Notes: generated from the letters alone by a model not told the origin. 64,000 bases of DNA from an uncultured Dehalococcoidia bacterium (GCA_964406605.1 CAYOSF010000010.1:117840-181839); one strand, 5' to 3'; positions 2,990 through 59,723 are shown, numbered from the stretch's first letter. Translations and numbers: made by a program.

Positions 2990-2991
2990 TC

Positions 2992-3444
2992 ATGGCCGAA
3001 ACACGCGCGGCCCTAAACGATCCCGACTTCATGGAGGCGCTCCTCGACCTCGTGATCCCGCCGAGCGCGTCCGGCGACCTTCCGGGGGCGGGCGCCCTGG
3101 GCCTCTCGGAAGACGTCGTCGCGGCGCTCCAGGCCGATCCGACGCTTGGGCCGCTGGTCGAGGCGGGGGTGGAGGCGCTACGGGAGGCGGCTCTTTCCGA
3201 GCACGCGGAGGGCCTTCCGGCAATGACGCCGGAGGCCGGCGAGAAGGTGATCGAAGCCCAGCTCGCCGCCCATCCCCTGTTCATCATCGGCATCCTGCGG
3301 TATCTGTACCCGGCCTACTACGGGCACCCGCGCGTCCTGGAAGGCATCGGCGAACCGCCACGTCCCCCGTTCCCGGAGGGGTTCGACGTCGAAGCGACCG
3401 ATGAGGAGCTGCTGGAGAAGCTGCGGGCACGCCGGAGGGCGTAG
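2992..3444 (+). CDS. Small subunit of a GMC-type dehydrogenase (gluconate 2-dehydrogenase subunit-3-like)
   Basis: The ATG at 2992 lies 2 nt after the upstream stop codon (stop 2987-2989). It encodes 150 aa. The ..YLYPAYYGHPRVLEGIG.. segment resembles the subunit-3 family. The listed ORF 2476..3444 is its 5'-overextended frame. Confidence 0.6.
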   Translation: MAETRAALNDPDFMEALLDLVIPPSASGDLPGAGALGLSEDVVAALQADPTLGPLVEAGVEALREAALSEHAEGLPAMTPEAGEKVIEAQLAAHPLFIIGILRYLYPAYYGHPRVLEGIGEPPRPPFPEGFDVEATDEELLEKLRARRRA

Positions 3445-3594
3445 GAAAGCGGCGCAACGCGGCGCGCCGTCGCCGGACAGCCCGCTGATCGCGAGCGCCG
3501 TGCCGGCCGTGTCGAGGAGGTAGTCTCTGCCGGCACCCGCCTTCAGACTGGACGGTGGCCTCGTCCACGGAGAGGCCGGACTGGGAGGAAGCCC

Positions 3595-23653: not shown

Positions 23654-26251
23654 CTACACCGGCAGACGAGGAACCACGCCAGCGGTAAACTGTAGCACCA
23701 AGGCGGCATCTAGTGCGTTGACGACACCATCTTGATTTGCATCGGCTTGGGCTTGGCACGCCAATGAGCCTCTTAGTCCAGCTGCATACTGAAGGATGGC
23801 CAAGGCGTCCAGGCTCGATACGTCTTCGTCGCAATCTGCATCGCCATAGACGACCATTGGCGTTGCAGTGGCAGTCGGGGTCGCCGTTTGCGTCGCACCC
23901 GCGCTGGGACTGGGGGTCACAGTTGCGGTCGGAGACGCTGTTGGTTGCTCTCCTTTCCCTCCGCTGCTGCACGTGCTGTTCGCACAGTGGAGGATGACCA
24001 GGGCCAAGTTGTTGGCCCGGTCGCCGAACGCAACGACGGGATTTGCATTCGAGTCCAACACTAGGGAGGCCCCCAACCCAACGGAACCAAACGTAATCGG
24101 CGTCTCAACGATATTGCCCGAAGCGCACGCCAGATCACCGCACGACACAATGGTTAGATCTCCCTCTCCTGGCTCATGGACTGCTATGACAGGTCTCCCT
24201 CCTGAACTGAGGGCTAGTGACAGGCCTCGCTCACTCATAAAGAAACCCCCAGCCCCTCCAGCCACGACGGTCTCAGACTGATTCCCAGACTCACAGGTGA
24301 CATCACCGCACCGCAGTAGACGGACCAGTTCATTCTCAACGTCATAATACGCTACTACTGGAATACCCAGCGGATCCAGAGCTAGGGACGAGAACCCGAC
24401 GTTGGTGCCTTCGTCTACCGCGATCGCCTCGTTCGGTCCAGTGCAATTGGGGTCCTCGCAATGAAGCACGTACAAGTCGCCGTCACCCTCGTCAAATCGC
24501 GTGAAGCTCATCACCGGATTCCCATCTTGGTCGATTGCCAGCGAACTTAGCGCGCCAGCTCCAAGTGGACTGATGGTGTTGCCACTCGAACACGTGGGGT
24601 CTCCGCAGTGCAGTAGCACCAGTCCGCCAAGGCCATCGTCATAGCTGACCGCGGGATTCCCGGATCTGTCAAGTTCAAGTGAAGCTCCACTGCCAAGTTC
24701 GTGTTCGGTCGGCGCAACAATTGTATTGCTCCCGCTGCAAGATGGGTCGCCGCAGTGCAGAACATTGATCCCACCATCCGCTTTGTACGCCACGACCGGG
24801 TTTCCTAGGGAGTCGAGCTTCAGCGACGGTCCCGAACCATCGAAACCAACGATCGTACCGTCTCTGCAATTGCTGTCGGCGCAGTGGAGCACCCGTATCT
24901 CCGGCGAACCTCCTTCTGGGCTGTGTCCATATCCCACAACCGGATTCCCATCTTCGTCGAGCACGAGTGAGCTCGCGAATCCAAGGGTAGCGCCACCCAG
25001 GTCGGGTCTGCTCACCTGGTTGCCCGAAGTGCACCAGGAATCCCCGCAACGAAGTACTTTCAAGGAGAAGCTCTCTTCAAGTGGGACGAAGGGTCCCGTC
25101 GTACCGTCGAAGTAGCCAATTGCAGGATTGCCCAGATCATCGAGTCGCAGCGATGGAGATCCGAACTCCCCTTCGTCCACCGCGATCATCGTGTTGTCCG
25201 CTGCGCAGTTGGTGTCGCCGCAGTGGAGTACTCGTAGCTCACCCGAGACCGAGAACGGTGGACTATGGACAAACAGGTATGCGATCACCGGTCGTCCAGC
25301 TGCGTCAAGAGCGAGAGACGGACTGCCCCCGGTAGGTCCAAAGGTGTCGGGCGAGGTGATCACGTTCTTGGACGTACATGCCGCGTTTCCGCAGTGCACT
25401 ACTCTCAGCGCACCGAAGCCGTATGCCACTACTGGGTTTCCACTCCCATCGAGAGCCATCGCCGTACCTGCCCCCCACACATGATTTCCATCCGGGTCGG
25501 GCGATGCGATGGAATTCTCAGAAGCACAGTTGGGATCCCCACAACTCAGCACTCGCAGGCCGGCATCTGTTGACTCGTCGCCCTCTCCCACGTAGCTCAC
25601 GACAGGATTGCCATCGGAATCCAGCCGAAGATCAGTCGTTCCGCCTGACGCGGCGACGCCTGGAGAACTCGAAATGTTTCCTTTCGCGCAGTTCGGATCG
25701 CCACAATGGAGCAACTTTACAACGTGGTTCGCGCTGTCATAGTAGCTCACCACAGGGTACCCGGACACATCCAACTCAAGTGAGGAGTATCCGCCTACTC
25801 CCCCGGTATCAGCCGTAACTAGGGAATTTCCGGACGTGCAATTGGCGTCGCCACAATGAAGGATCTTCAATGAGCCGTCGCTTTGGCTGCCATAGCTGAC
25901 CACCGGCTTGCCTTCAGCATCTAGCTCGATAGAGGTGTCAATCGCGAGGACGGCGGAATGCGGCGTGGCGATTGAGTTCCCGGCAGAGCACGTCGAATTG
26001 CCGCAGTGCAGGACCTTGAGTGCGTTCTCGGTTTCGTCGAAGTAGCTGACAACCGGGTTCCCAAGGACATCTAGAACCAGCGAGGGCGATGTGCCAACTA
26101 CACCATCGCTGTCGGGCACCGTAATTGTGTTCCCTCCGGTTCCCCGCGCCACGTCCCCCGGCAGCAACAAACTCGCCGCCGCAGCGACGGCGAGGATCGC
26201 TAAACTAGTGAGTACCTGGCGCCAACAATCCATCGATCCCTCCAGTTTCAA
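23654..26251 (-). CDS. Secreted protein with 14 tandem Cys-pair repeats, a Thr/Pro/Ala linker and a C-terminal dockerin-like module
   Basis: A signal peptide is present. There are 14 units built on ..LDxxGNPVVSY..(L/V)(K/R)(V/I)LHCGDxxC.(S/G)N.. . The C-terminus reads GDADCDEDVSSLDALAILQ...DANQDGVVNALDAALVLQFTAG..LPV. Confidence 0.85.
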   Translation of the reverse strand: MKLEGSMDCWRQVLTSLAILAVAAAASLLLPGDVARGTGGNTITVPDSDGVVGTSPSLVLDVLGNPVVSYFDETENALKVLHCGNSTCSAGNSIATPHSAVLAIDTSIELDAEGKPVVSYGSQSDGSLKILHCGDANCTSGNSLVTADTGGVGGYSSLELDVSGYPVVSYYDSANHVVKLLHCGDPNCAKGNISSSPGVAASGGTTDLRLDSDGNPVVSYVGEGDESTDAGLRVLSCGDPNCASENSIASPDPDGNHVWGAGTAMALDGSGNPVVAYGFGALRVVHCGNAACTSKNVITSPDTFGPTGGSPSLALDAAGRPVIAYLFVHSPPFSVSGELRVLHCGDTNCAADNTMIAVDEGEFGSPSLRLDDLGNPAIGYFDGTTGPFVPLEESFSLKVLRCGDSWCTSGNQVSRPDLGGATLGFASSLVLDEDGNPVVGYGHSPEGGSPEIRVLHCADSNCRDGTIVGFDGSGPSLKLDSLGNPVVAYKADGGINVLHCGDPSCSGSNTIVAPTEHELGSGASLELDRSGNPAVSYDDGLGGLVLLHCGDPTCSSGNTISPLGAGALSSLAIDQDGNPVMSFTRFDEGDGDLYVLHCEDPNCTGPNEAIAVDEGTNVGFSSLALDPLGIPVVAYYDVENELVRLLRCGDVTCESGNQSETVVAGGAGGFFMSERGLSLALSSGGRPVIAVHEPGEGDLTIVSCGDLACASGNIVETPITFGSVGLGASLVLDSNANPVVAFGDRANNLALVILHCANSTCSSGGKGEQPTASPTATVTPSPSAGATQTATPTATATPMVVYGDADCDEDVSSLDALAILQYAAGLRGSLACQAQADANQDGVVNALDAALVLQFTAGVVPRLPV

Positions 26252-27178: not shown

Positions 27179-29695
27179 CTATGCTGCTGATTCCTGGATA
27201 GCCAGGCCTTCCGCCACGTCTCGGGGGCGGCCGATGTGGTAGCCCTGCGCGTAGTCGGCGCCGAGCTCTCGCAATAGCTGCACCGTTTCGTCGTTGCCGA
27301 CGAACTCGGCGATGGTCTTCTTGCCCAGCCCCGTGGCCACCTGCACGATGGCTTGCACCAGGTGCTGGTCCACCGGGCTGTGCGGCAGGTCACGGATGAA
27401 CGAGCCATCGATCTTCAGGTAGTCGACGGGCAGGTGTTTCAGGTGGTAGAAGGACGAGAAGCCGACGCCGAAGTCGTCGAGTGCGAACTGGCAGCCCAGC
27501 CCCTTCAGTCGAGCGATCAGGCTCTGAGCTTGGGCGATGTTGGCGATGGCGGCCGTCTCGGTGACCTCCAGCACCAGGCTCGTCGGCTCGACCGACCTGG
27601 CTTCCAGCTCCCGGGAGATGAAGTCGTAGAGATCGTTGTCGGCAAAGGCCTTGCCGGACAGATTGACCTCCAGCCGCACCGCTCGTCCCGCTCGACGTTG
27701 CGCTGCTATCAGGCGGACGGCCTGGCTGATCACCCACCGGTCGATGGCGTTGATCATGCCTGAGCGTTCCGCGATTCCGATGAACGAGTCGGCTTCGATC
27801 ACGCCGTCTTTGCTGCGCAGACGGAGCAGCAGTTCATGCTGGGGTACGCTCCCGCTATGGAGGTCCAGGATTGGCTGCGCGTAGAGGCAGAACAGCCCGT
27901 GTTCCAGGGCGTCCCGGATGCGATGCTGCCACCCGAGCCTGGACTCGACCTCGGCGTGCCAGTCCATCCCGCCGGCGCAGACACTGACGCGGTTCGGCCC
28001 CTGTTCCTTGGCCTGGTACATGGCCAGATCGGCCCGGGAGAGCAGGTCCTCGGGTATCAAGCCGTGCTCTGGGTACAGCGCGATGCCGATGCTGGCGGTC
28101 ACCCGGGCCGCGCTTCCGCCGGCCTGGAAGATGTGGCCTTGGATGGAGCTCAGGAGCATGCCCGCTACCTCAAGGGCCTGCTCGCGGTCGGCGTGGGGAA
28201 GGAAGACGGCAAACTCGTCCCCGCCTGCCCGGGACACGATGTCGGAGTCGCGCAGCCGGTCTCGGAGCAGCCGGGCCAGCCCGGCGAGCAGCTCGTCGCC
28301 GGCCAGGTGGCCCAGAGTGTCGTTGATGTCCTTGAAGTCGTCCAGGTCCAGGAACAGCAGGGCGCCCCCGGTATCGTACCTCTCCGCCAGAGCCAGCTGC
28401 GTCTCCAGCTCCTCCTGGAACCGCCGCCTGTTGAACAGGCGAGTCAACGGGTCGTGATTCGCCAGGTGCACGAGGCGGTCCTCGAAGTGCTTGCGCTCGC
28501 TGATGTCCCGCACGACACCGATGAACGCCTCAGGGTTCCCCTCCCCATCGCTGACGAGCGAGGCGCTGAGTTCGGCGGGGAACCGGCTCCCGTCCTTCCT
28601 CAGCAGGCGGTACTCGATGTTCCTGACGCTTCCGGTTCGCAGGGCGGCGGCTGCATTCTCCGCGGCCCGCTGGCGGTCTTGCGGGTCCACGAATTCCATC
28701 GCGCTCCTGCCGATCATGTCGTCCGCGGTTTCGCACCCGTGCACGGCTATTGCCTGACGGTTGACCATGACGATGTTGCTGCTCAGGTCGGTGAGCGTGA
28801 TGGCGTCGGGGGACGTCTCAATGAGCGTCCGATAGCGCGACTCGCTCTCGCGCAGCGCCCGTTCCGCTCGCTTCCGCTCCGTGATGTCTCTCAAAGAACC
28901 TTCGATTGCCACCGGCGTGCCGTCTTCCGAGAGCACGAGACGGGCACCCACCGAGGCGTCTGCCACCCGGCCGTCGCCCGTCTTGAGGCGGACCTCGTAG
29001 TCGATGACCTCCCTGTTCTCCACGAGCGTCTTCACGAGGTGTGCCCGGGACTCCGGGTCTTCGTAGATGTCGAGCACCTGCGTGCCGATCAGCTCGTCGC
29101 GTGCGTATCCGTAGCCTTCCACCGAAGGGCTGATTTCCGTGATGATGCCTTCCATGTCCGTTCGGTAGAAGACGTCCCGGACGTTCTCGAAGAAGCTCCG
29201 GTACTTCGCTTCCTGTTCCCTGAGCGCCTCTTCCGCCTGTTTGCGCTCGGCGATGTCGCGCACCGCGACAGCTCTCACCGACCGGCCCTCGTACAAGACG
29301 GTTCTGCCCCTGATCTCCAGGGGGATCTCAGTCCCATCCTTTCGAAGGCCCTGCACCTCGCACGGCTCCTCGCAGCCCGACACGATGTTCCGCCAGACAG
29401 TGGCGCGGGATTCTTCCGTGACAAGAGTCAGCCCGTCCAAGCCGACGAGCTCGGCGACTTCATATCCCGAGAGCGCAGCCAGAGCCGGGTTGGCGGCCAG
29501 AATCGTGCCCCTATCGTGAATGAAGACCCCCTCAGTAGCCGCCTCGCACAGAAGCCTGAGACCTTCTCCGTCTGCTCGACGGACGTGGTCCGCTTGTATT
29601 CCCTCGGCGGATTCCGAGCCGGACCGCTCGCGGCGACTCAGAATCTCGTTGCCCGCCGGCTGCCCGGACTGCCTGTCGTGGTGTCCTTCTGCCAT
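27179..29695 (-). CDS. Multi-PAS GGDEF-EAL signalling protein (c-di-GMP cyclase/phosphodiesterase)
   Basis: It has three or four PAS-like modules. GGDEF (RAGGDEFAV) and an EAL domain (..ELLLRL.., DDFGVGFSS) are present. The start is uncertain: I use the ATG at 29695, but the ORF extends to 29839. Confidence 0.9.
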   Translation of the reverse strand: MAEGHHDRQSGQPAGNEILSRRERSGSESAEGIQADHVRRADGEGLRLLCEAATEGVFIHDRGTILAANPALAALSGYEVAELVGLDGLTLVTEESRATVWRNIVSGCEEPCEVQGLRKDGTEIPLEIRGRTVLYEGRSVRAVAVRDIAERKQAEEALREQEAKYRSFFENVRDVFYRTDMEGIITEISPSVEGYGYARDELIGTQVLDIYEDPESRAHLVKTLVENREVIDYEVRLKTGDGRVADASVGARLVLSEDGTPVAIEGSLRDITERKRAERALRESESRYRTLIETSPDAITLTDLSSNIVMVNRQAIAVHGCETADDMIGRSAMEFVDPQDRQRAAENAAAALRTGSVRNIEYRLLRKDGSRFPAELSASLVSDGEGNPEAFIGVVRDISERKHFEDRLVHLANHDPLTRLFNRRRFQEELETQLALAERYDTGGALLFLDLDDFKDINDTLGHLAGDELLAGLARLLRDRLRDSDIVSRAGGDEFAVFLPHADREQALEVAGMLLSSIQGHIFQAGGSAARVTASIGIALYPEHGLIPEDLLSRADLAMYQAKEQGPNRVSVCAGGMDWHAEVESRLGWQHRIRDALEHGLFCLYAQPILDLHSGSVPQHELLLRLRSKDGVIEADSFIGIAERSGMINAIDRWVISQAVRLIAAQRRAGRAVRLEVNLSGKAFADNDLYDFISRELEARSVEPTSLVLEVTETAAIANIAQAQSLIARLKGLGCQFALDDFGVGFSSFYHLKHLPVDYLKIDGSFIRDLPHSPVDQHLVQAIVQVATGLGKKTIAEFVGNDETVQLLRELGADYAQGYHIGRPRDVAEGLAIQESAA

Positions 29696-29878
29696 GCCGA
29701 CTGCCTTCAAATGTTGTATCGGTTCCCTCTGACGTGGAATCCAGGCCCGTCCAAGCTGGTCGGGGGACACAGCGACGCAAATACGGGAAGCGGACGACGG
29801 GCTCCGTGGGGCAGCATACGACGCCGCGAGGGGCGTCACGACGACCAGCTACACTGACTCTGCCCTTCGGGGCTGGCC

Positions 29879-36325: not shown

Positions 36326-38884
36326 CTAGGCTGCTTCAGACCACGTGCGCAGCAGCACCTCCTCGAGCTCCTCGGCATCAACCGGGCGGCTAAAGAGGAA
36401 GCCCTGCACTTCGTCACACAGCTCGCGCTCGAGAAACGCGAGCTGCTCCTCGGTTTCCACACCCTCCGCCACCACGCCCAGCTTGAGGTTGTGTGCCATG
36501 TGGATCACCGTGGCGGTGATCTCCGCGTCTCTCGGGTTCGTGGCGACGTTCCGGACGAAGGAGAGATCGACCTTCACGGCATCGATGGGCAGGCGGCGCA
36601 GGTAGCTCAGGGAGGACTGGCCGGTGCCGAAGTCGTCGATGGCGATCTCGATGCCCATCTGTCTCAACTGCCGCAGCATCATGATGCTGTAGTCCACGTC
36701 TTGAATGGCCACGCTCTCGGTGATCTCCAACTGGAGGAAGTGGGCGTCGAGGCCGGTCTCCTGCAGCACCTGCCGCACGCGTTCCACCAGATCGCGCTGT
36801 TGGAACTGCCGCGCCGAGAGGTTCACCCCTACGCGGACTCGTGGGAGCGCTGCGTCCTGCCAGACCTTGGTTTGGGCGCAGGCTGTGCGCAAGATCCATT
36901 CCCCGAGCGGTGCGATCAGGCCGGTCTCCTCGGCTACCGGGATGAACTCGGTAGGCATCACCAGCCCTCGTTTCGGATGCTGCCAGCGCACCAAGGCCTC
37001 CACGCCGACGATCCGCCCGCTCTGGATATGGACCTGGGGCTGGTAGTGGATGACGAACTCCTCTCGCTCCAGCGCGTGGCGCAAGTCGTTCTCCAGGGCC
37101 AGCCGATCGAGGATGCTGGCACTCATGGCAGGGCTAAAGAGCTGGTGGTTGTTCCGCCCGTGCTCCTTCGCGCTGTACATGGCGATGTCGGCGTTCCTCA
37201 GCAAGGTCTCCGCGTCGTCGCCGTGGTTGGGGAACACGGCAATGCCGATGCTGGGCGTGATGCGAAACTCGTGGCCGCCCAGGAAGCGCGGCCGCCGGAA
37301 CTCCTCCACGACCCGCTCGACGACCTCGATTGCGTCGCCGATCCGCTCGACGGCTGGTAGCAGCAGCAGGAATTCGTCGCCCCCCACCCGGGCCACGGTG
37401 TCCCCCTCCCCTGTCAGCTCCCTGAGCTGCGCGGCGATGGTCCGGAGCAGATCGTCTCCCTCAGGATGGCCGGCCGTGTCGTTCACCACCTTGAAGTGAT
37501 CCAGATCGAGCAAAGCCACTGCCACGAGTCGGCTGTGACGGCGCGCCTGGGCCAGCGCCACATCCAGACGGTCCCTGAACAACGTGCGATTGGGTAGATC
37601 GGTCAAGGGGTCATGGTACGCCAGGTGTCTGACAGCCTCCTCCGCTTGCTTGCGCTCTGTGACGTCGCGGAAGATGCCCCTGGTGGCCACCGGCTTTCCG
37701 TCCTGCAGCTGGGCGAAGGTGCTGCCCTCAACCCAGATACTCCTGCCCTGCTTGGTCACGAACTCGGCCTCAATTCGGTCAAGGCTCTCGCCGGCCATCA
37801 CACGCTGGAACATGGCCATGCAATGCTCTTTGCTATCGGGGTGAACGATGTCAAGCATGTTGAGGCTGCGGATCTCTTCCTCGCCGTACCCAAGTGTCTC
37901 GCGCCAGGCGCGGTTGACATAGACATAGGACCCATCCATCGCCACGCTCTGGATGATGTCGCTTGTGCTCTCAAACAGGTCGCGATATCGTTCCTCGCTC
38001 TGCCGCAACTGCTCCTCCGCCCGCTCGCGTCTGGCGATGTCTTTGACCAGCGAATCTGTCATCCGATTAAAGGAGGCGCCCAAGCGGACGAGTTCCTGCG
38101 GGCCTGTCGCGGGTGCCCGAGCCTCGAGATCGCCATCCGCCACGGCCAGGGTGGTCGACTCCAACGACGAAAGCGGCTTCAGGATGGAGCGCGCCATCAG
38201 GGCGGATGCTGCGGTACCCAAGACAGCACCGGCCGCGCCGAAACCGACAAGGAGCCAAAGGGCGATCTGGCCTGCATGGTCGGCCTGGCCTCGAAGGCTC
38301 GCCGCTTCCTGACGCTCGAAGTCGGCTGCGTCCCTGAGCTGCACGCCGATCATGGTCATCGGCGAGACCTGCTGTTCGAGAGCGGCTCTTGCACCTTCAA
38401 TGTCGCCGGTCTGGCGTAAGCCGATCACTACCTCCGCCGTCTCTGAGAGCTTGGCCAACCCCTCGGCTATGAGGTCCAGCCCGGCGGACTCCTCTTCGCT
38501 GTAGTGCTCATACTGCCCATTGGAGCTGTGCTCTTCTTCCAGTGCTCGCGCCAGACTGAGGGAGTCCTTCGCATCCGCAATGCTCCTGCGGAGAATGGGA
38601 GCGAGCGCCTCGTCTCCAGTAACGATGTAGCGTTCGAGCAGCCACGCGGCGACGGCGCTCTGGAACCTGGCGTCTTCCAGGGCTAGTGCTGTCCGTTCGT
38701 AAGAAGCTGCGGTGGCAAGGTGGGAATCGTGGTGCCGCTCCATCAGCGTGGCGCTTGCTACCACCGCGATCAGGACAAGGACGAGCAGGCCGTTGCTGGC
38801 AATGATCCGTCCTTTCGTCGAGGAAGGCAGGGGCAATCTGGCCCACCGGAGACGGGGAATGCTGATTCCTGGCAACCTTATCAT
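36326..38884 (-). CDS. Membrane sensor HAMP-PAS-GGDEF-EAL protein (c-di-GMP turnover)
   Basis: It has an N-terminal TM helix, a periplasmic helical region, a second TM helix with HAMP, and PAS. GGDEF (VGGDEFLLL) and EAL (EALVRW, DDFGTGQSS) are present. Confidence 0.9.
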   Translation of the reverse strand: MIRLPGISIPRLRWARLPLPSSTKGRIIASNGLLVLVLIAVVASATLMERHHDSHLATAASYERTALALEDARFQSAVAAWLLERYIVTGDEALAPILRRSIADAKDSLSLARALEEEHSSNGQYEHYSEEESAGLDLIAEGLAKLSETAEVVIGLRQTGDIEGARAALEQQVSPMTMIGVQLRDAADFERQEAASLRGQADHAGQIALWLLVGFGAAGAVLGTAASALMARSILKPLSSLESTTLAVADGDLEARAPATGPQELVRLGASFNRMTDSLVKDIARRERAEEQLRQSEERYRDLFESTSDIIQSVAMDGSYVYVNRAWRETLGYGEEEIRSLNMLDIVHPDSKEHCMAMFQRVMAGESLDRIEAEFVTKQGRSIWVEGSTFAQLQDGKPVATRGIFRDVTERKQAEEAVRHLAYHDPLTDLPNRTLFRDRLDVALAQARRHSRLVAVALLDLDHFKVVNDTAGHPEGDDLLRTIAAQLRELTGEGDTVARVGGDEFLLLLPAVERIGDAIEVVERVVEEFRRPRFLGGHEFRITPSIGIAVFPNHGDDAETLLRNADIAMYSAKEHGRNNHQLFSPAMSASILDRLALENDLRHALEREEFVIHYQPQVHIQSGRIVGVEALVRWQHPKRGLVMPTEFIPVAEETGLIAPLGEWILRTACAQTKVWQDAALPRVRVGVNLSARQFQQRDLVERVRQVLQETGLDAHFLQLEITESVAIQDVDYSIMMLRQLRQMGIEIAIDDFGTGQSSLSYLRRLPIDAVKVDLSFVRNVATNPRDAEITATVIHMAHNLKLGVVAEGVETEEQLAFLERELCDEVQGFLFSRPVDAEELEEVLLRTWSEAA

Positions 38885-40179: not shown

Positions 40180-42342
40180 ATGTCTGCATGGAAGAGATTC
40201 GCGCTCCGGTCGCGACGAACGGCCCTCGTTCTGAGCGTCATGGCGTTCGCGGCAGTAGCCGTGCTTCCCTGGCCGACGGCCGAGCCGACCGGCGCGACGG
40301 GCAACACCATCACCCAGTTGGACCAGGCTGGCGCTTTCGAAGGGTCCGGCTCGCTCGTTCTGGACTCAAGCGGCAACCCGGTGATCAGCTTCTACCGCGG
40401 GGGAGATCGGGACCTCGTGGTGGTGCACTGCAACGACCCCAACTGCGAAGGTGACGACGAGAGCATCGTCACACCCGATACGGGCGACGTAGGCACGTTC
40501 ACCTCGCTCAAGCTGGATTCAAGCGGCAACCCGGTCGTCAGCTACTACGACAAGGCCGGCCGCGACCTGAAGGTGCTGCACTGCGGCACTGCCAACTGTA
40601 CATCAGGCAACAGCATGACCTCGCCCGACACGAGCGGTATCGTGGGCCAGTACACTTCGCTGGAGTTGGACTCAAGCGGCAACCCGGTGGTGAGCTACTG
40701 CGGCAACACTCAACTGAAGGTCATGCACTGCAACGACCCAAACTGTGCGGGCGGCGACGAGAGCATCAACTCGACCGACTCAGGCTTCGACTTCGGGTAC
40801 ACGTCGCTGGAGCTGGATGCAAGCGGCTACCCGGTCGTCAGCTACTGCCAGTTCGGGGGAGGTCTGTGCAACGACCTGAAGGTGCTTCGCTGCAACGACC
40901 CGAACTGCGCGGGCGGCGACGAAAGCATCGCCTCGCCCGACACGGAGGGCGATGTCGGCTACTATACCTCGCTGGAGCTGGACGGAAGCGGCTATCCGAT
41001 CGTGAGCTACCACGACTTCACCAACCACGACCTGAAGATGCTGCACTGCGGCAACGCCAACTGCACGTCGGGCAACAGCCTCACCTCGCCTCACACCGAC
41101 GACAACGTCGGTGGAGACACCTCGCTGGAGTTGGACTCAAGCGGCAACCCGGTGGTCAGCTACCACCACATAGGCTACGGCGACCTCATGGTGATGCACT
41201 GCAATGACCTCGACTGCTCGGGCGGCGACGAGAGCTTCGCCTGGCCCGACACGCCCGGCTGGGTGGGGTCGTATACATCGCTGGCGCTGGACTCAAGCGG
41301 CAACCCGGTGGTCAGCTACCGCAACGACACCGGCCACGCCCTCAGGGTGCTGCATTGCAGCGACCCCAATTGCGCCGGCGTCAAGATCACACCGACCTCC
41401 ACACCAACGCCCACGCCAACCTACACGGCCACACCGACGGACACGCCCACGCCCACCGATACCCCCACGCCAACGGCCACGGCCACGCCCACCGATACCC
41501 CCACGCCAACGGCCACGGCCACGCCCACAAACACGCCGACCAACACGCATACACCTACCGTGACCAGCTCGCCAACCCCAACCCCAACTCCAAATACTCC
41601 TGTCGGGGCGCCGGTAGAGGTGCCGCTGGGCGTCGGGGTTACGGTCACCTTTGACGAGGTGACACAGGCTGGCAATACGACGCTGACAACGAGTGAGCCG
41701 GGACCGCCACCGCCGCAGGGTTTCCGCTTGGGCTCTCCGCCAACGTACTACGACATCTCCACCACAGCAACCTACACAGGAAGCATCGAGGTCTGCATTG
41801 ACTACGACGATTCTGCCTTCGCACCCGGCGTCGAAAAAAGCCTGCGGCTCTTTCATCGCGAAGACTCTGCTTGGGTGGACGTGACCACCTTCCTGGACAC
41901 GGACATCAACCGGATCTGTGGCAGGGTCACCGACCTGTCCTTGTTCGTCCCGGCCGAACTGATACCGGGAGAGGACTTCGATGGTGACGGATGCCCGAAT
42001 GAGGAGGAGTTGGGTGACGACGGGCGAGCGGGCGGGCGCCGCGACCCGCTCAACCCGTGGGACTACTTCAACCCGACAAACGACGGGCTGAACCGCATTG
42101 ATGACGTGCTGGCCGTGGTGGACCACTACTTTCTCCGCGAGGGCGAGCCGGGCTACGAGAGCGGCAAGTACGACCGGAGCTATCTGGGGCCGAACGATTG
42201 GAACCTGGGTCCGCCGGACGGGCAGGTGCTGGTGGACGACGTTGTGCACGCGGTGAAGCAGTACTTCCACGACTGCGGGACAGGGATCGTGAAGCCGACG
42301 CCCACAGCGCCGCTGGCACCCAACGCGACGCCACTGCGGTAG
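40180..42342 (+). CDS. Secreted protein with 7 Cys-pair repeats, a PT linker, a beta-sandwich-like domain and a C-terminal Ca-binding/dockerin-like region
   Basis: A signal peptide is present. Seven units share the ..LDSSGNPVVSY..LKVLHC(N/G)DPNC.. motif seen in 23654..26251. A long TPTPT linker follows. The C-terminus carries DFDGDGCPNEEE and two N/D-x-D-G..(I/V)DDV helices. Confidence 0.85.
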   Translation: MSAWKRFALRSRRTALVLSVMAFAAVAVLPWPTAEPTGATGNTITQLDQAGAFEGSGSLVLDSSGNPVISFYRGGDRDLVVVHCNDPNCEGDDESIVTPDTGDVGTFTSLKLDSSGNPVVSYYDKAGRDLKVLHCGTANCTSGNSMTSPDTSGIVGQYTSLELDSSGNPVVSYCGNTQLKVMHCNDPNCAGGDESINSTDSGFDFGYTSLELDASGYPVVSYCQFGGGLCNDLKVLRCNDPNCAGGDESIASPDTEGDVGYYTSLELDGSGYPIVSYHDFTNHDLKMLHCGNANCTSGNSLTSPHTDDNVGGDTSLELDSSGNPVVSYHHIGYGDLMVMHCNDLDCSGGDESFAWPDTPGWVGSYTSLALDSSGNPVVSYRNDTGHALRVLHCSDPNCAGVKITPTSTPTPTPTYTATPTDTPTPTDTPTPTATATPTDTPTPTATATPTNTPTNTHTPTVTSSPTPTPTPNTPVGAPVEVPLGVGVTVTFDEVTQAGNTTLTTSEPGPPPPQGFRLGSPPTYYDISTTATYTGSIEVCIDYDDSAFAPGVEKSLRLFHREDSAWVDVTTFLDTDINRICGRVTDLSLFVPAELIPGEDFDGDGCPNEEELGDDGRAGGRRDPLNPWDYFNPTNDGLNRIDDVLAVVDHYFLREGEPGYESGKYDRSYLGPNDWNLGPPDGQVLVDDVVHAVKQYFHDCGTGIVKPTPTAPLAPNATPLR
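41452..41523 (+). repeat. Perfect 2 x 36-bp tandem duplication inside the PT-linker coding region
   Basis: 41452-41487 equals 41488-41523 (cccaccgatacccccacgccaacggccacggccacg). It encodes PTDTPTPTATAT twice. Confidence 0.9.
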
Positions 42343-45059: not shown

Positions 45060-45646
45060 GCGGCCCTCCTGACATAAGAATCGGTTGGGTGACGGCAAGC
45101 TGGAGGGCTCAGGATGTGTGGCCGCGCAGGTCACGTTGTGCGCGAGCTCGCTACGGGGGCCTCACTCTTGTGGAAGCCTGGTCAGAGATGAAGGCTTGCA
45201 TGGTGCAGCATGCCCTGCAAGGGAGATATCGATGATTGAGCACACGGGGGACGGCCCAGTGCACGTCTTCACCATGCAGAATGAGCGGAACCTGATCCGC
45301 CTGCCGTTCCTGGCGCATCTGCTCGAGGCGGAGAGTGAAGGCGATTCGGCCCCCGTCCTGGTGCTCCGCGCTTCGCACGAACCACGGGACCGCCCCCAGC
45401 GCCGCGTCCATGGCATCGCCCCTCGGCGGGCCTCGGCGAAGGTTGGCCGTCTGCCGGCAAACTACGGGCCCGGAACGACAAACGCGTGAGCCCCAGTGCG
45501 CCCCGGACGGTAGAATGAGTCCGCGAGATCTTGGTGACACCGTTACCGCCTCAAGACGTCGGAGGCGAGTTACAGTGCGCGAAGCGTTGGAGTCGCATAC
45601 CAACGCGGGGCGAAAGCGTCGCCGGCCGCAGAAGGATCGCTCCAGT

Positions 45647-46708
45647 ATGACACAGCCCCCAAAGGTGGCCGCCCGGCGCCGGTGGCCGATCAGTGCTTTC
45701 GTGTGGCTGGCCCTGCTCGTTGCGGTCAGCGCTTTGGTGTTCACCAACGTGGGCGAACTGCGGAAGATCGCCGGCGCACTCGCGGACGCACGCTGGCAGG
45801 CCGTCGTACTCGCTGCAGCTGTCGAATTGCTCTTTCTCGTGAACTTGGGCTTCTTCTATGCGAACACGTTTCGCGCAAGCGGCATCTCCGCCGGCGCGGG
45901 CCGCTACGTCCTCCTCTCCTCCGCTTCCAACTTCGTTAACCTGGTCTCCAAGACGGGGGGCCTCGGCGGCATCGCGCTCTTTCTTGAGGAGGGACGGCGC
46001 AGGCGCGAGCCGGCCGCGCGCGTCACCGCCGCTTACATGACGGTCTACGCGTTGGGCTACGGGGCGTACGTCCTGACGCTCGCCGTTGCGCTCGGATTGT
46101 TGTACTTGCGGGGCTCCCTCCAGCCCGTGGAGCTCGTCGCGTCGGGAATCATGCTGACGCTTATCATAGGCATCGCTGTTGGCGTAGCGATGAGTCTGCG
46201 AAACCGGGCGCTACTGGAGCGCCTCTTCATGGTGGCTTCACGCCCCCCCAATGTCCTCGCGCGGCTTCTGGGCCGCCGGCCGTTCGTTGAGCGACCCTCC
46301 GCCCGGCGTGCCGCCGCCGAGCTCTACGATGCCATCATGCATATCCGGCGCCGGCCTGGGAGGTTCGTCCTCCCGGCCGGGCATGCCCTTGCGGTGGAAC
46401 TGTTGAGCGCGTTCCTGCTGTACACGGTTGCCCGGGCCTTTCATGGGAACTTGGGCTTCGAGGCCGCGCTGGCCGCCTACGCCATCTCACTCCTCTTCTC
46501 CATGATCGCGATCACGCCATCGGGCCTTGGGTTCGTTGAGACGTCACTGAGCGTCCTCTTGATCTCGTTCGGCATGCCCAGACAAGACGCGATAGCCACG
46601 GCCCTTGGCTATCGCCTGTTCGAGTTTTGGCTCCCGGTCTTGCTCGGCGCGATCAGCCTTTGGTGGGTGCGTCGCGGCTTCGGCCGGTCGGAGGGCCCCA
46701 CGGCGTGA
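45647..46708 (+). CDS. Lysylphosphatidylglycerol-synthase-TM-region (flippase-like, UPF0104) membrane protein
   Basis: It has ~8 TM helices with Arg-rich loops, the family-typical architecture. It sits directly upstream of an MprF-like synthase gene and overlaps it. Confidence 0.7.
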   Translation: MTQPPKVAARRRWPISAFVWLALLVAVSALVFTNVGELRKIAGALADARWQAVVLAAAVELLFLVNLGFFYANTFRASGISAGAGRYVLLSSASNFVNLVSKTGGLGGIALFLEEGRRRREPAARVTAAYMTVYALGYGAYVLTLAVALGLLYLRGSLQPVELVASGIMLTLIIGIAVGVAMSLRNRALLERLFMVASRPPNVLARLLGRRPFVERPSARRAAAELYDAIMHIRRRPGRFVLPAGHALAVELLSAFLLYTVARAFHGNLGFEAALAAYAISLLFSMIAITPSGLGFVETSLSVLLISFGMPRQDAIATALGYRLFEFWLPVLLGAISLWWVRRGFGRSEGPTA

Positions 46709-53412: not shown

Positions 53413-53658
53413 CGCGTTCGCATGGCCGACCGGCTCGCCGATAGCGACCCGCGCCCGGTCAAGCCCACGTCGCACAATCGCACTTGGCCGGCAACTCGCG
53501 CGATGCGCCCGCAGGGTCATCGCCGCATGAGCGATGTGCCGCGGTGGTTCGCCGTATCCGCGGCCGGCCGGCGGAAGCCGGCGGCCCGGTTGCACGCCGA
53601 CGCGCGCCGTGCTAGCTTGCGGCCACGAAGGCACGAGAGCAGCGAAAGCGGAGGCTGC

Positions 53659-55053
53659 ATGCTCACGCGACTTACCCCTCCAGGACTTGGTGTTCTTCTC
53701 GCAGCGCTCGTCGTGGGGACAGCCCTGCTGTGGCCGGCCGCCGATTCGGGCTGGGCGTCGGGCCCAATCGTGTCGGTGACGGCCGGAGGCGAGCATACGT
53801 GCGCTCTGACTTTGGCGGGTCGGGTGAAGTGCTGGGGTGACAACTTCCGCGGCCAATTGGGGGACGGGACGTCCACTGACCGCAGCGTGCCCGTGGATGT
53901 GGTGGGTCTTGGAAGCGGGGTTGCTGGCGTCACTGCGGGGCAGCAACACACCTGCGCCTGGATGCCGTCGGGCACGGCGGGGTGTTGGGGATCGAACACC
54001 TACGGCCAGTTGGGAGATGGGTCAGGTGCGCCCCAGCAGTTCACGCCGTCGACCGTGGTGGGTCTGACAAACGCGGCGGCATTGAGCGCGGGGTCTGACC
54101 ACACCTGCGCTCTGACGAACGCCGGAGGCGTGAAGTGCTGGGGGCGGAACGATTTCGGTCAAGTGGGCGATGGAACCACGACGCATCGTCCCACGCCCGT
54201 AGGCGTGACCGGGCTGGGCAGCGGCGTCGCCGCTGTCGCGGCCGGCGGCAACCATACGTGCGCCCTGACGACGGCGGGGGGCGTCAAGTGCTGGGGTCGC
54301 AACAACCAGGGCCAGCTCGGAGACGGTACGACGATTGACCGAACGACGCCGGTCAACGTGGTTGGGTTGACGAGTGGCGTCGCCGCCATCGCTCCCGGGT
54401 TTCTCCATACCTGTGCGCTCACGACGGGCGGTGACGTGAAGTGCTGGGGGCGGAACGACCACGGCCAGCTCGGGGACGGCACCGGGACCCCCCGACCGAC
54501 ACCGGTCAGCGTGCTTGGCCTGCCGGCGGGCACGACTGCCGTGGCCTCCGGCGGCAGCCACACGTGCGCCGTCACCGCCGGCAGCCGCGTTCGATGCTGG
54601 GGTTGGAACGGGTTCGGGCAGCTTGGGGACGGCACGACGGTGAGCCAGAACAGAGCGGTAGGCGTGTGCGCCGACGCGACGTGCGCCGGCCCCCTAGAGG
54701 ACGTAGCCAGCGTCGATGCCGGTTACACGCACACTTGTGCCGTGACCATGGAGACCGGGACCAGATGCTGGGGGAGCAACGGCAACGGCCAGCTGGGGGA
54801 CAGCACCACGATCGATCGGCGCGCACCGGTGCACGTCCTACTCGCCAAGGCTGTGCGTATTGGGGACGTGAACTGTGATGGAGCCATCAATAGCGTGGAC
54901 GCGGCACTCGTCCTGCAGTTGGTGGCCGGCCTCGTCCCATCCCTGCCCTGCCAGATTGCCGGGGATGCCGACCTGGACGATTCCGTCAACTCAATCGACG
55001 CGGCGCTCATCCTGCAGTTCACCGCGGGCCTCATCGGTCACCTGCCGCCGTAG
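53659..55053 (+). CDS. Secreted RCC1-repeat (7 blades) protein with a C-terminal dockerin-like module
   Basis: A signal peptide is present. There are seven ..HTCA....G.VKCWG.N..GQLGDGT.. units. The C-terminus reads [53 protein letters not shown]. Confidence 0.85.
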
Positions 55054-55234
55054 CGGGCGAAAGCCGACCGCCAAGATCGCACGATCGCACGTGCCCGCGG
55101 GTGCCTGAGGACTGGCTTCTGGCCCAGCGTCTCGTTCGCGAGCAGCGGGCCGGCAATACCAGCCCCTGGCGCCGCGCGTCGTCCTCCTTCGCCTTTAGCC
55201 TGTAGGGCCCGATCAGGTACGCTGTGCCAACGTG

Positions 55235-56281
55235 ATGTCTGCTCTCCTGCGGGTGCTAGTCGTTGCCTCACTTGTAGCCGTCGGAGCAGCCTGCGGTCGA
55301 ACGGATTCTGTGGACGGGCCTGCAGAGACGGAATCTGAGATTGGCCCCGCACCGGCGCTGTCGGACGTCCAATTCTGGGCGTATCAGATCCAAGGCCTTG
55401 ATCGAGGGGACGCCATCGCCGACCTCGCGAACTCTCACTACGACCTGATCGTTGTCGAGCCCACCCGAACGGTCGCCGGCAACGAGGGGTTCGACACGGC
55501 GAGCGCCGTCGCGCGCATCAAAGCGAGCGCCAACAGTTCCGGCGACGGGCGGAAGATCGTGCTGGCGTACATCGACATCGGAGAAGCTGAGGACTACCGG
55601 ACGTACTGGGACGACGCTTGGAGCGCGCCTTCAGGAGATGGGCGTGGAAACCCCGACTTCCTCGTCGCGCCTGATCCCGACGGCTGGTCCGGCGACTATC
55701 CGGTTGCGTTCTGGGACGGCCGGTGGAAGGACATTGTCATCTACGACGACGACAGCCTGATCGACGCGGCGATAGCCGACGGCTTCGATGGCATCTATCT
55801 TGACTGGGTAGAGGCATATGATGACGTGAGCGTGATCGATGCGGCGGAGGAAGACGGCGTAGACGCGGCAACGGAGATGGTCGCGTTCATCCGAGAGATG
55901 CGTGAGTTCGCGGAGGAGAGGCACCCTGGATTCCTGATCGTGGCCCAGAACGGGGCGGATCTGCTCGATGGTCACCCGGAGTACCTCGATCTCATCGACG
56001 GTCTGGCGCAGGAAGACCTCTCGTTTCTTGGAGACGCGGACACCGGCTGGGATGGCCCGGACTCCGGAGACATCCCGCAGGACGAGGGGTACCACAACTA
56101 CCTCCTTGGCGTGCTCGAGCGCTACGCTGCCGAAGGCATCCCGACCTTCTGCGTTCAGTACGCCAGAGAGCCGGAGAACGTCGAGCGGGCGCTGGAGGAT
56201 GCCGACGATGTCGGGTGCGTTCCGTACGTTACGCTGACGCCCTTGGATCGCCTCACCGATACCCCACCACCCGGATATTGA
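55235..56281 (+). CDS. GH114/TM1410-like putative glycoside hydrolase lipoprotein (endo-alpha-1,4-polygalactosaminidase-like)
   Basis: The lipobox is AVGAAC. ..WAYQIQGL..YDLIVVEP.. and ..VLAYIDIGEAEDYRTYW.. fit the GH114/TM1410 pattern. Confidence 0.7.
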   Translation: MSALLRVLVVASLVAVGAACGRTDSVDGPAETESEIGPAPALSDVQFWAYQIQGLDRGDAIADLANSHYDLIVVEPTRTVAGNEGFDTASAVARIKASANSSGDGRKIVLAYIDIGEAEDYRTYWDDAWSAPSGDGRGNPDFLVAPDPDGWSGDYPVAFWDGRWKDIVIYDDDSLIDAAIADGFDGIYLDWVEAYDDVSVIDAAEEDGVDAATEMVAFIREMREFAEERHPGFLIVAQNGADLLDGHPEYLDLIDGLAQEDLSFLGDADTGWDGPDSGDIPQDEGYHNYLLGVLERYAAEGIPTFCVQYAREPENVERALEDADDVGCVPYVTLTPLDRLTDTPPPGY

Positions 56282-57943: not shown

Positions 57944-59308
57944 CTACGGCGGCAGACTGGGTATCAAGCCGGCGCTGTATTGCAGGATGAGTGCTGCGTC
58001 TATTGCGTCGGTGCTGCCGCTGGCGTTGACATCCGCGTTGTGCTCGCAGGGCAGCGAACCCACCAGTGATGCCACTAGCTGCAGGACGAGGGCCGCGTCG
58101 ATGGCGTTGGTAGTGTAGTCGCAGTTGGCATCACCCACGGGAATGGCCTTCGCCCCGGAGACGCTCACCGGCACGTCGCTCCTGAGGTTTGTGCCGTCCC
58201 CCAACTGGCCGAAGATGTTGTCGCCCCAGCACGCGACGCTGCCTTCAGTGAGCAAGGCGCAGGTGTGCAACCATCCGCCCCCGACGGCCGTCACGCGGCT
58301 GCCCAGGCCCAAGACCGCCTCCGGCAGGTCGCGGTCGGTCTTCGTCCCGTCTCCCAACTGCCCGTAGGAATTGAGGCCCCAACACTTCACGGTGCGCTCA
58401 GCCGTCACGGCGCAGGTGTGAAACCATCCAGCTCCTATCGCCTGGACCCCGGCGGTCAGGCCCGGGACGTTCACCGGCAAGTTGCTGTTCGTGTTCGTGC
58501 CGTCGCCCAACTGGCCGTGATCGTTGCCTCCCCAGCACTTGACGCCGCCCTCGCCAGTGAGGGCGCACGTATGGCGCATCCCTGCCGAGACTGCCCGGAC
58601 ACCGCTGCTGAGGCCGGAGATGTTCGTCGGCACGGTCCTTCGCATGTTCGTGCCGTCGCCCAACTGGCCGTCGTTGTTGTTGCCCCAGCACTTCACACTA
58701 CCCCCGGTCATGATGGCGCACGTGTGGCTGTAGCCTGCCGAAACAGCCTGCACACCGCTGCTGACGCCCGGGACGTTCACCGGCAAGTTGCTGTTCGTGT
58801 TCGTGCCGTCGCCCAGCTGGCCGTAATCGTTGCTCCCCCAGCACTTGACGCCGCCCTCGTCCGTAAGGGCGCACGTGTGGATGCGGCCTGCCGAAACGGC
58901 CTGCACGCCGCTGCTGAGACCCGAGACGTTCACCGGCAGGTTCCTGTCCGTGTTCGTCCCGTCTCCCAACTGGCCAGCGAGGTTGTCCCCCCAGCACTTG
59001 ACGCCGCCCTCGCCAGTGAGGGCGCACGTGTGGTTGTGGCCTGCCGAAACGGCCGCGACGCCAATACTAAGACCCGAAACGTTCGTCGGCAGGTTCCTGC
59101 GGGTGATCGTGCCGTCCCCCAGCTGACCCTGATCGTTGTCGCCCCAGCACGTGAGGCCACCGCCGCTGCTGAGGGCGCAGGTGTGGTCCGCGCCCGTGGA
59201 TACGCTCTCGACGCCCGTGGCCGAGGCCGGGCCGGGGCGGCCCATAGCGACGGCGGGTATGAGCATGGCCGCGAGGCCCAGAGCGACGAGCGATGTGAGC
59301 GTGCGCAT
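57944..59308 (-). CDS. Secreted RCC1-repeat (7 blades) protein with a C-terminal dockerin-like module
   Basis: A signal peptide is present. There are seven ..HTCAL...G.VKCWG.N..GQLGDGT.. units. The C-terminus reads [53 protein letters not shown]. Confidence 0.85.
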   Translation of the reverse strand: MRTLTSLVALGLAAMLIPAVAMGRPGPASATGVESVSTGADHTCALSSGGGLTCWGDNDQGQLGDGTITRRNLPTNVSGLSIGVAAVSAGHNHTCALTGEGGVKCWGDNLAGQLGDGTNTDRNLPVNVSGLSSGVQAVSAGRIHTCALTDEGGVKCWGSNDYGQLGDGTNTNSNLPVNVPGVSSGVQAVSAGYSHTCAIMTGGSVKCWGNNNDGQLGDGTNMRRTVPTNISGLSSGVRAVSAGMRHTCALTGEGGVKCWGGNDHGQLGDGTNTNSNLPVNVPGLTAGVQAIGAGWFHTCAVTAERTVKCWGLNSYGQLGDGTKTDRDLPEAVLGLGSRVTAVGGGWLHTCALLTEGSVACWGDNIFGQLGDGTNLRSDVPVSVSGAKAIPVGDANCDYTTNAIDAALVLQLVASLVGSLPCEHNADVNASGSTDAIDAALILQYSAGLIPSLPP

Positions 59309-59723
59309 GAAGGTGGAGTCCTTGTCCCAGGATGGCCTCACACTAGACGGCTGAAGCGTACGTGTCAAGCGCACCGCCGCCGAATGAGAGTTGGGTGTGT
59401 TCCGCAATCCAGTTGAGTGCGGTCGCGGTGCTAGGGCTGGGTCGGCGAGCGGGATTGCGCCCTTTCATCATCGTGTGGCCTCCGACCCCCGCGAAGAACG
59501 AAATGACTAGCACCGTGCCGTCGTCATCGGCCCCAGTAGATAGTGCATCCGGCCTTGGCGGGCTACCACGGCACCGTTTGGCCGTCGCCAATGTCGTACA
59601 ATCGCACTTGGACGCCCTTGACCTCCGACTAAGGTATCCTCCAGCGGATGGCATATGACTTCCGGAATGACGTATTCTTGCGATACGTGTGGCTGAGCGT
59701 CCTAGACTGGCACTCACCCATAT

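Follow-up and report, generated by a model that had tools for sequence, protein, structure and literature searches.

The PLL lectins are multivalent sugar binders in which Trp-containing sugar sites lie between adjacent blades (PMC6943638). For propellers with internally similar blades, Pereira and Lupas (2022) defined "highly repetitive" by a cut-off of >60% median identity (PMC9218822). Among self-cleaving domains, GAIN and MAIN domains cleave between their last two strands, and the MAIN arrangement consists of a signal peptide, adhesion or enzyme domains, the MAIN domain and an anchor (Brogan and Rudner, bioRxiv 2026, 10.64898/2026.05.12.724683). CARD8 cleaves at S295-F296/S297 with an essential His270, 27 residues upstream of Ser297 (PMC3210808), and ZU5-type autopeptidases were already noted in bacterial adhesion and enzyme surface proteins by Zhang et al. 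in 2012 (PMC3482391), who thereby foreshadowed the MAIN arrangement. Here we compare with these systems the product of gene A, a modular protein of an uncultured Dehalococcoidia bacterium, encoded in a 64,000-nucleotide stretch of its DNA (GCA_964406605.1 CAYOSF010000010.1:117840-181839), which we call the window.

The order of parts in A, namely leader, propeller, linker, sandwich and flexitail (Table 1), matches the MAIN rule. We think it fairly probable that A is a secreted, surface-displayed, multivalent lectin-like propeller held on a spacer, a possibly self-cleaving module and a flexitail anchor.

A propeller with a cysteine pair in each blade

The first-pass annotation, made from the DNA alone, had described exactly seven C-x4-C units in A. 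A regular-expression search finds exactly seven.C-x4-C strings, the same ones: HCNDPNC at residue 83, HCGTANC at 134, HCNDPNC at 183, RCNDPNC at 237, HCGNANC at 289, HCNDLDC at 340 and HCSDPNC at 392. The units are 49-54 residues long and 35-71% identical in pairwise comparison, and a hidden Markov model (HMM) of the pooled blades recognizes seven domains in A (E 1.8e-157) and 14 in paralog B, a second gene of the window. Direct repeats in the DNA of A (128-217 nt, 63-78% identity) have the same periodicity as the protein units, confirming a repeat structure far beyond chance. The Cys-pair motif is found in no other reading frame of the window besides A and B. The annotation had also pointed to a shared start, GNTIT. 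This string is present after the signal peptide of A, and B has GGNTIT, but rather than being a special post-signal motif it belongs to the repeat unit, whose first strand it forms (its counterparts are GNSMT in blade 3 and GNSLT in blade 6).

AlphaFold2, run on residues 38-405 with an alignment of 97 homologues (alignment A1), folds the seven units as the propeller that the annotation had assumed. The model is all-β, with 28 strands (7 x 4), a predicted local distance difference test score (pLDDT) of 95.8 and a predicted template modelling score of 0.93. As modelled, the repeat core of A is a seven-bladed β-propeller.

In a Foldseek search of the PDB, the top matches to this model were the Photorhabdus PLL/PHL lectins PLL5, PLL2 and PHL (E 5e-15 to 1e-12, template modelling (TM) score 0.66-0.74), followed by GH145 and sialidase-type propellers. 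Like A, these lectins (PDB 8q83, 6rgg, 5mxf and 5c9o; best match E 5e-15, TM 0.73) have seven blades built from units of about 50 residues. They differ from A in being only 12-17% identical to it, with no relation at the HMM level. The PLLs are free soluble proteins with neither linker nor anchor tail, and the disulfides that the PLL3 paper describes for their cysteines are intermolecular. Neither phmmer nor hmmsearch with a 98-sequence profile against all PDB sequences found a sequence relative of the propeller in the PDB. Within the propeller of A the only Trp residues are W355 and W361, both in blade 7.

Pfam matches to the repeat are fragments of 14-40 residues from BNR_4, DUF1936 and DUF5998. 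For BNR_4 (PF15892), A scores 28.6 bits, above the cut-off of 27.3, yet no single stretch passes alone and only profile positions 227-256 of 272 are covered; the homologues behave alike. No NCBIfam model matches the repeat. Explaining the repeat by a known domain was therefore rejected, given the fragmentary Pfam matches, the lack of an NCBIfam model and the lack of a PDB sequence relative. The core has a lectin-like propeller fold but belongs to neither the PLL nor the BNR family.

The same comparisons bear on whether the propeller is a binding module at all or could instead be an enzyme, for instance a glycoside hydrolase or lyase of the GH145 or sialidase kind. Foldseek also matches GH145 BT3686 (E 8e-11), sialidases and a pseudaminidase, the family of the weak partial BNR_4 matches includes such propellers, and there is a GH114 gene elsewhere in the window. 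We nevertheless judge an enzyme improbable. The seven blades conserve the same positions, leaving no blade-unique conserved polar residues for one asymmetric active site, and of the 272 profile positions of BNR_4 only about 30-40 are matched. A regular expression for the Asp-box (S-x-D-x-G-x-T-W) finds none in A, and family members carry one to four propellers beside the adhesion-type domains PKD, RTX and TSP3. Seven near-identical blades in a lectin-like fold make a multivalent binder of a repetitive ligand the most likely reading.

Across 2,111 aligned blades from 337 family proteins, both Cys are present in all but one (2110/2111). The residue before the first Cys is His in 57% of these blades and otherwise Arg or Lys, and two positions after the first Cys stands Asp in 54%, otherwise Asn. 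In the AlphaFold2 model the C-x4-C motifs sit outside the strands, each in the stretch that connects the fourth strand of its unit with the next unit. Near-invariant Cys residues accompanied by variable His and Asp in an exported protein favor a structural disulfide over a metal site. Each pair most likely forms a small disulfide staple between the last strand of one unit and the first strand of the next.

The competing proposal is that the seven [HR]-C-x-D-x-x-C motifs are Zn or Fe sites. His, Cys, Asp and Cys of the motif are all possible ligands, and in the homologues the H-C-x-D-x-x-C string gives spurious 14-residue matches to Pfam families of the zinc-knuckle type (DUF1936, PyrI_C, IBR and DNA_ligase_ZBD). 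Two blades of A, however, have no Asp (G-T-A-N and G-N-A-N), and near-invariance is limited to the two Cys. The leader of A comes into this question as well, because export by the twin-arginine (Tat) route, if real, would bear on the choice between disulfides and cofactor sites. It consists of a basic n-region, KR..R.RR, followed by hydrophobic ALVLSVMAFAAVAVL and then PWPTAEPTGA, and the homologues have an equivalent leader of about 30 residues ahead of blade 1. Residues 10-16 (40207-40227) read R-S-R-R-T-A-L, a look-alike of the Tat motif; the S-R-R-T-A-L would suit export of a folded, cofactor-loaded protein. No NCBIfam Tat-signal model matches A at E<=1, and the leader of B has no RR. We therefore regard metal sites as unlikely and retain the disulfide staple.

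The propeller belongs to a large family. In a word-indexed search 8,000 candidates were scored, of which 1,390 reached E<=1e-5. The top matches to A are 56-62% identical and mostly from Dehalococcoidia metagenome-assembled genomes (MAGs); most have 380-630 residues and span the whole seven-unit query. In alignment A1, A is 44-62% identical to the 97 homologues across the whole propeller. An exhaustive profile search gave 21,560 clusters (50% identity) at E<=1e-3 and 6,677 at E<=1e-30, the longest protein having 7,237 residues. Relatives occur among the GTDB representative genomes in Dehalococcoidia, other Chloroflexota, Ardenticatenaceae, Gaiellaceae and Acidimicrobiia, and the family is mainly one of Dehalococcoidia and Chloroflexota with some Actinomycetota; no locus near-identical to A was found among these representatives. 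We define this uncurated Cys-pair seven-blade family by alignment A1, with units of about 50 residues of the form S-L-x-L-D-x-x-G-x-P-V-V-S-Y ... L-K-V-L-H-C-x4-C. A has seven such units in tandem, with the Cys pair in all seven.

Blade counts in the family are quantized, with seven in 138 proteins, 14 in 44, 21 in four and 28 in two, which identifies the seven-blade ring as the module. Across the family this propeller is joined to tails of different types, among them dockerin, PKD, RTX, TSP3 and the flexitail. The flexitail in turn is found elsewhere with GDSL esterases, M28 and subtilisin peptidases, RCC1 and PD40 propellers, and PKD and TSP3 repeats. The idea of a modular surface-protein family, put forward in the annotation, is borne out in both directions, the propeller carrying varied tails and the flexitail varied enzymes and domains. 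The full architecture of A recurs in the Dehalococcoidia MAG swi_bin.376 (locus L001, open reading frame (ORF) 1669-3582), and tblastn matches to A span nearly the whole query at loci L003, L005, L014 and L027. Directly downstream of the A-like gene of L001 (3824-6124, + strand) is a gene for a 766-residue protein that is rich in acidic D-x-D-G-D repeats and has a dockerin-like C-terminus, so that a flexitail gene here adjoins a gene for a dockerin-type surface protein.

Linker, sandwich and flexitail

The long TPTPT linker of the annotation corresponds to a 71-residue Thr/Pro stretch. Its DNA contains a tandem array of a 36-nt unit (3.4 copies, 89% matches, 41407-41528), likely a hotspot for variation in linker length.

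At the C-terminus, A matches NCBIfam NF041520 ("flexitail domain-containing putative surface protein") over all 107 profile positions (1-107), with 87.7 bits where the cut-off is 40 (E 8.3e-25). All of the tail strings quoted in the annotation are present, including the acidic, Ca-binding-like end, and residues 599-699 are a flexitail with Dx[DN]xDG. The novelty of this tail is largely refuted by the curated model, whose name is already on propeller-bearing homologues (P0044 and P0082), with the function given as "putative". A literature search for "flexitail" returned only unrelated antibody-engineering papers and no paper on the domain. Its pattern is DFDGDGC...NPWDYFNP..DG.NRIDD...QYFHDC, with conserved C605 and C699. 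The calcium-type Dx[DN]xDG motif starts at residue 599 (D-x-D-x-D-G-C). Further on come two segments of the form D-G-x-[NQ]-R-[IV]-D-D...Y-F and, at the end, H-D-C. Single Dehalococcoidia MAGs have the domain at at least seven loci.

Type I dockerins, such as those of B and of two RCC1 proteins of the window, are like the flexitail in being small C-terminal modules on linkers, with calcium-type motifs and diverse secreted partners, and by eye the two D-G-x-N/Q-R-[IV]-D-D...Y-F segments of the flexitail resemble dockerin F-hands. Two features set the flexitail apart from the dockerin, a conserved Cys pair of its own and the NPWDYFNP motif. A divergent dockerin was rejected as an identification: residues 461-720 match no Pfam family at E<=10, and hhalign, run with the flexitail profile against an alignment of 20 dockerin segments from the family together with B's own, gave a probability of 0.25%. 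In relatives, the place of the flexitail is taken by LPXTG, type IX secretion system (T9SS) or membrane anchors, and by this analogy the flexitail is likely an envelope-attachment module. That these anchors can be swapped with it after the same domain is the first positional argument for an envelope anchor.

Between the linker and the flexitail, the annotation had proposed a β-sandwich-like domain, and AlphaFold2 predicts an 11-strand sandwich (tail model, pLDDT 90.2). Nine of the 12 top Foldseek matches to the tail model belong to the autoproteolytic ZU5 superfamily, namely ankyrin ZU5, the BAI3, CD97 and BAI2 GAIN domains, and NLRP1 FIIND, all with weak E-values (4e-3 to 7e-2). The three GAIN domains are among the top seven, with probability 0.9-1.0 and E 1e-2 to 3e-2; their TM scores are low, the query having two domains. 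Five residues, C539, H559, C580, S587 and F589, are invariant in 15 homologous domains that are 44-67% identical. Where an anchor is recognized in relatives, the domain directly precedes it (T9SS-type C-terminal domains, an LPNTG sortase signal or C-terminal transmembrane helices). A few proteins of 180-245 residues (P0380 from a Thermomicrobiales MAG, P0366/P0371 and P0375/P0377) consist of little beyond the ZU5-like sandwich and an anchor signal, which is LPNTG with a hydrophobic tail, a T9SS-type C-terminal domain or a C-terminal transmembrane helix. Several of these are probably complete, given the long contigs that encode them.

The candidate cleavage site of A, D585-L586/S587, falls between the last two strands of the predicted sandwich (model residues 116-118, between strands 109-114 and 119-125 by DSSP). 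Its His559 (41854-41856) is 28 residues upstream of Ser587. Across 64 members of the family the motif reads x-[LFV]-S-x-F, with Ser at position -2 in 48, Thr in four and Gly in three. A His lies 25-32 residues upstream of the motif in 59 of the 64, most often at 28 residues, and exactly there in 28.

A sandwich with a FIIND-type motif between its last two strands, an invariant Ser and a distal His may cleave itself. The domain resembles MAIN and GAIN_B in its architecture, the candidate site between the last two strands, the Ser as putative nucleophile and the hydrophobic residue at -1, and its predicted β-sandwich may be of the same fold type. It differs in that MAIN and GAIN use H-x-[ST], where the family of A has Ser at -2 (Asp in A itself). 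The MAIN preprint (10.64898/2026.05.12.724683) mentions neither Chloroflexota nor the flexitail; A represents a Chloroflexota lineage whose likely anchor is a flexitail. The parallel with FIIND lies in the motif: CARD8 has S-F/S and a His 27 residues upstream, the family of A has S-[LF]-S and, 28 residues upstream, an invariant His. NLRP1 FIIND and ankyrin ZU5 are among the top structural matches. Unlike FIIND, the sandwich of A is extracellular, is not followed by UPA, and has no match to ZU5 at the sequence level.

The domain could instead be a purely structural, Ig-like spacer that does not cleave itself, leaving A a single chain. We put this slightly below an even chance. The canonical H-x-[ST] of GAIN and MAIN is absent, position -2 never being His in the 64 members, and A itself departs from S-[LF]-S in having D-L-S, with Asp at -2. 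The Foldseek matches have marginal E-values (4e-3 or worse), and a sequence link to ZU5 or GPS was sought without success: none of the 15 members matches Pfam ZU5 or GPS at E<=10, and a profile search of PDB sequences with the domain returned nothing relevant. Against a mere spacer stand the invariance of Ser587, Phe589 and His559 among members of such modest identity, the position of the motif where GAIN, MAIN and FIIND cleave, the cleavage of CARD8 and NLRP1 at S-F/S via a distal His, and the consistent placement of the domain just before an anchor. By analogy with these domains, self-cleavage of the sandwich of A has roughly even odds.

Paralog B and the history of the blades

The annotation had described two paralogs about 14 kb apart, with seven and 14 units and with different tails. 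B does have 14 motifs and starts 13.9 kb away on the opposite strand. Its tail ends in a dockerin (Pfam Dockerin_1, 3.5e-9, residues 802-852), and that of A in the sandwich and the domain with the acidic Dx[DN]xDG motif. The GC content of the window dips to 0.581 at 24001-26000, over B, compared with about 0.66 elsewhere and 0.632 in the region of A; amino-acid composition or foreign origin could account for the low value.

From this pair the annotation had derived evolution by whole-propeller duplication, in which units 1-7 and 8-14 of B would each be orthologous, in order, to units 1-7 of A. We compared the units pairwise with identity and normalized-score matrices and permutations, with position-specific blade HMMs, and in 44 other 14-blade proteins. 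No ordered signal was obtained between A and B1-7 (p=0.13/0.08), between A and B8-14 (p=0.13/0.09) or between B1-7 and B8-14 (p=0.60/0.73), so the claim did not hold up. BLASTP aligns A with the first half of B almost as well one blade out of register (46%, 223 bits) as in register (45%, 248 bits), and with the second half at 42% (216 bits). Within B, blades seven apart are 42.0% identical, below the 43.1% at all other offsets.

Some evidence does favor such duplication. Blade counts in the family are multiples of seven, although these are also expected from the need to close a propeller. A and B both start with G-N-T-I-T, and the offset-7 diagonal shows a faint excess among the 44 proteins, six reaching p<0.05 where 2.2 are expected and one p<0.01, with effects of 2-4 percentage points. 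On the other side, several 14-blade proteins have blades more similar within than between propellers (73% and 51% in P0319, 59% and 45% in P0214). The position-specific HMMs recover the true blade position 30% of the time, compared with 14% by chance, so that position is weakly encoded and the test of ordered correspondence has limited power. An old, eroded duplication is thus conceivable, but we consider ordered whole-propeller duplication improbable.

The strongest similarity within A has a period of three blades (A2 and A5, 66-67%; A3 and A6, 71%), which also argues against ordered copying of whole propellers. The strongest repeats in the DNA of A show it too: 40482-40698 and 40947-41163 are 78% identical at a distance of 465 nt (three blades), and 40872-41064 and 41181-41373 are 76% identical at 309 nt (two blades). 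The three-blade period suggests duplication of a sub-propeller segment and hints at a blade history of 1+3+3. We also observed that the blade junctions of A alternate as CNDPNC-xGGDES, CG.ANC-TSGNS and CNDPNC-xGGDES, again with a three-blade period.

Mean blade identity is 55% within A and 45% between A and B. Since A has closer relatives elsewhere (56-62%) than B, the two are old members of the family and not a local pair of recent origin. The family behaves like a pool of seven-blade modules in which blades are amplified or homogenized within each propeller, and not as a set of ordered whole-propeller copies. Recently amplified propellers (PMC9218822) similarly have blades more alike within than between propellers and weak blade-position identity, and the pattern of the family fits continuing amplification or homogenization from single blades or small groups of blades. 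Unlike the highly repetitive propellers of that paper, which does not mention the Cys-pair blade, the blades of A (35-71%) are mostly under the >60% median.

Genomic setting, proposed function and significance

The ORF of A begins with ATG, about 8 nt downstream of the Shine-Dalgarno-like AGAGGTG. A is monocistronic, with a divergent ORF upstream and a convergent short-chain dehydrogenase (SDR) gene downstream. The promoter scan found no sigma-70-like promoter for the gene, and terminator-like matches were at chance level only, at positions inside the ORF.

The window encodes three propeller proteins with dockerin tails, namely B and two RCC1 proteins of the secreted type, and contains no recognizable cohesin. 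As all three carry type I dockerins, the combination of a propeller with a C-terminal attachment module is a design that recurs in this genome. An MprF-like lysyl-phosphatidylglycerol synthase is encoded at 45335-48402 (+) by two overlapping ORFs (LPG_synthase_TM, 45335-46708; LPG_synthase_C, 46627-48402); this could reflect a frameshift or a genuinely split gene.

Table 1. Parts of A and other genes of the window (aa, amino acid residues)
Feature	Residues (aa)	Position in window	Strand	Basis or remark
Gene A, whole		40180..42342	+	720-aa secreted modular protein, stop codon included; ORF list
Probable signal peptide	1 to ~37	40180..40290	+	Translation inspected; cleavage site inferred
Predicted seven-bladed β-propeller	41-398	40300..41373	+	Units/motifs, AlphaFold2, Foldseek
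Blades 1-7	41-89, 90-140, 141-189, 190-243, 244-295, 296-346, 347-398			Each ends [HR]C-x4-C
Thr/Pro-rich linker	403-473	41386..41598	+	Composition: 34 T, 19 P of 71
Predicted ZU5/GAIN_B-like β-sandwich	479-594	41614..41961	+	AlphaFold2 tail model, Foldseek, 15-sequence alignment
Candidate autoproteolysis site	D585-L586/S587	41932..41940	+	Between last two strands of predicted sandwich; family consensus S-[LF]-S-x-F
Flexitail domain	599-699	41974..42276	+	NCBIfam NF041520
Paralog B		23654..26251	-	865 aa; 14 CX4C motifs, 14 blade-HMM domains, Ser/Thr/Pro linker, C-terminal type I dockerin
PAS-GGDEF-EAL gene (cyclic di-GMP turnover)		27179..29839	-	Lies between A and B
PAS-GGDEF-EAL gene (cyclic di-GMP turnover) with HAMP		36326..38884	-	Lies between A and B
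RCC1 seven-bladed propeller with C-terminal type I dockerin, secreted-type		53422..55053	+	Pfam WD40_RLD/RCC1, Dockerin_1
GH114 glycoside hydrolase gene		55232..56281	+	Flanked by the two RCC1-dockerin genes
RCC1 seven-bladed propeller with C-terminal type I dockerin, secreted-type		57944..59407	-	Pfam WD40_RLD/RCC1, Dockerin_1

If A is a surface-displayed lectin-like protein, its parts would act in sequence. A Sec-type leader would export it, and the propeller would bind a repetitive ligand multivalently, probably a glycan. The spacer would keep the propeller away from the cell, and the flexitail, which directly follows the ZU5/GAIN-like sandwich, would attach the protein to the envelope. The sandwich may then cleave itself, in which case the propeller would be held non-covalently on the anchored tail and could be released, as proposed for MAIN.

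Apart from the points raised above in favor of a plain spacer, four observations weigh against this picture. The likeness to PLL/PHL is at the fold level, with low identity and no sequence match. The Trp-lined inter-blade sugar sites of the PLL type are absent from A, blades 1-6 having no Trp. The anchoring role of the flexitail is drawn from its name, its C-terminal position and analogy, and its relation to dockerins was undetectable by hhalign.

Each component of A is of a known type, whether β-propeller, ZU5/GAIN-like sandwich or curated flexitail. What remains new is the uncurated and very large Cys-pair propeller lineage, together with the FIIND-like motif variant of the pre-anchor domain in Chloroflexota. 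A literature search on Dehalococcoidia, dockerin and propeller returned nothing relevant. The Cys-pair blade marks a very large propeller lineage that has neither a dedicated Pfam or NCBIfam model nor a solved structure, and that is concentrated in the poorly studied Dehalococcoidia and other Chloroflexota.

A more far-reaching proposal, which we offer tentatively and think rather unlikely as a whole, is that the sandwich is an unrecognized Chloroflexota branch of ZU5/GAIN/MAIN with S-[LF]/S chemistry of the FIIND type, that the flexitail is the envelope anchor of these bacteria, and that A is a Cys-stapled surface lectin, releasable by force or by a signal, from a new propeller family with one disulfide per blade. 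If true, the release mechanism of MAIN would extend to the Chloroflexota, and the FIIND-matching motif would bear on the kinship of the autoproteolytic domains.

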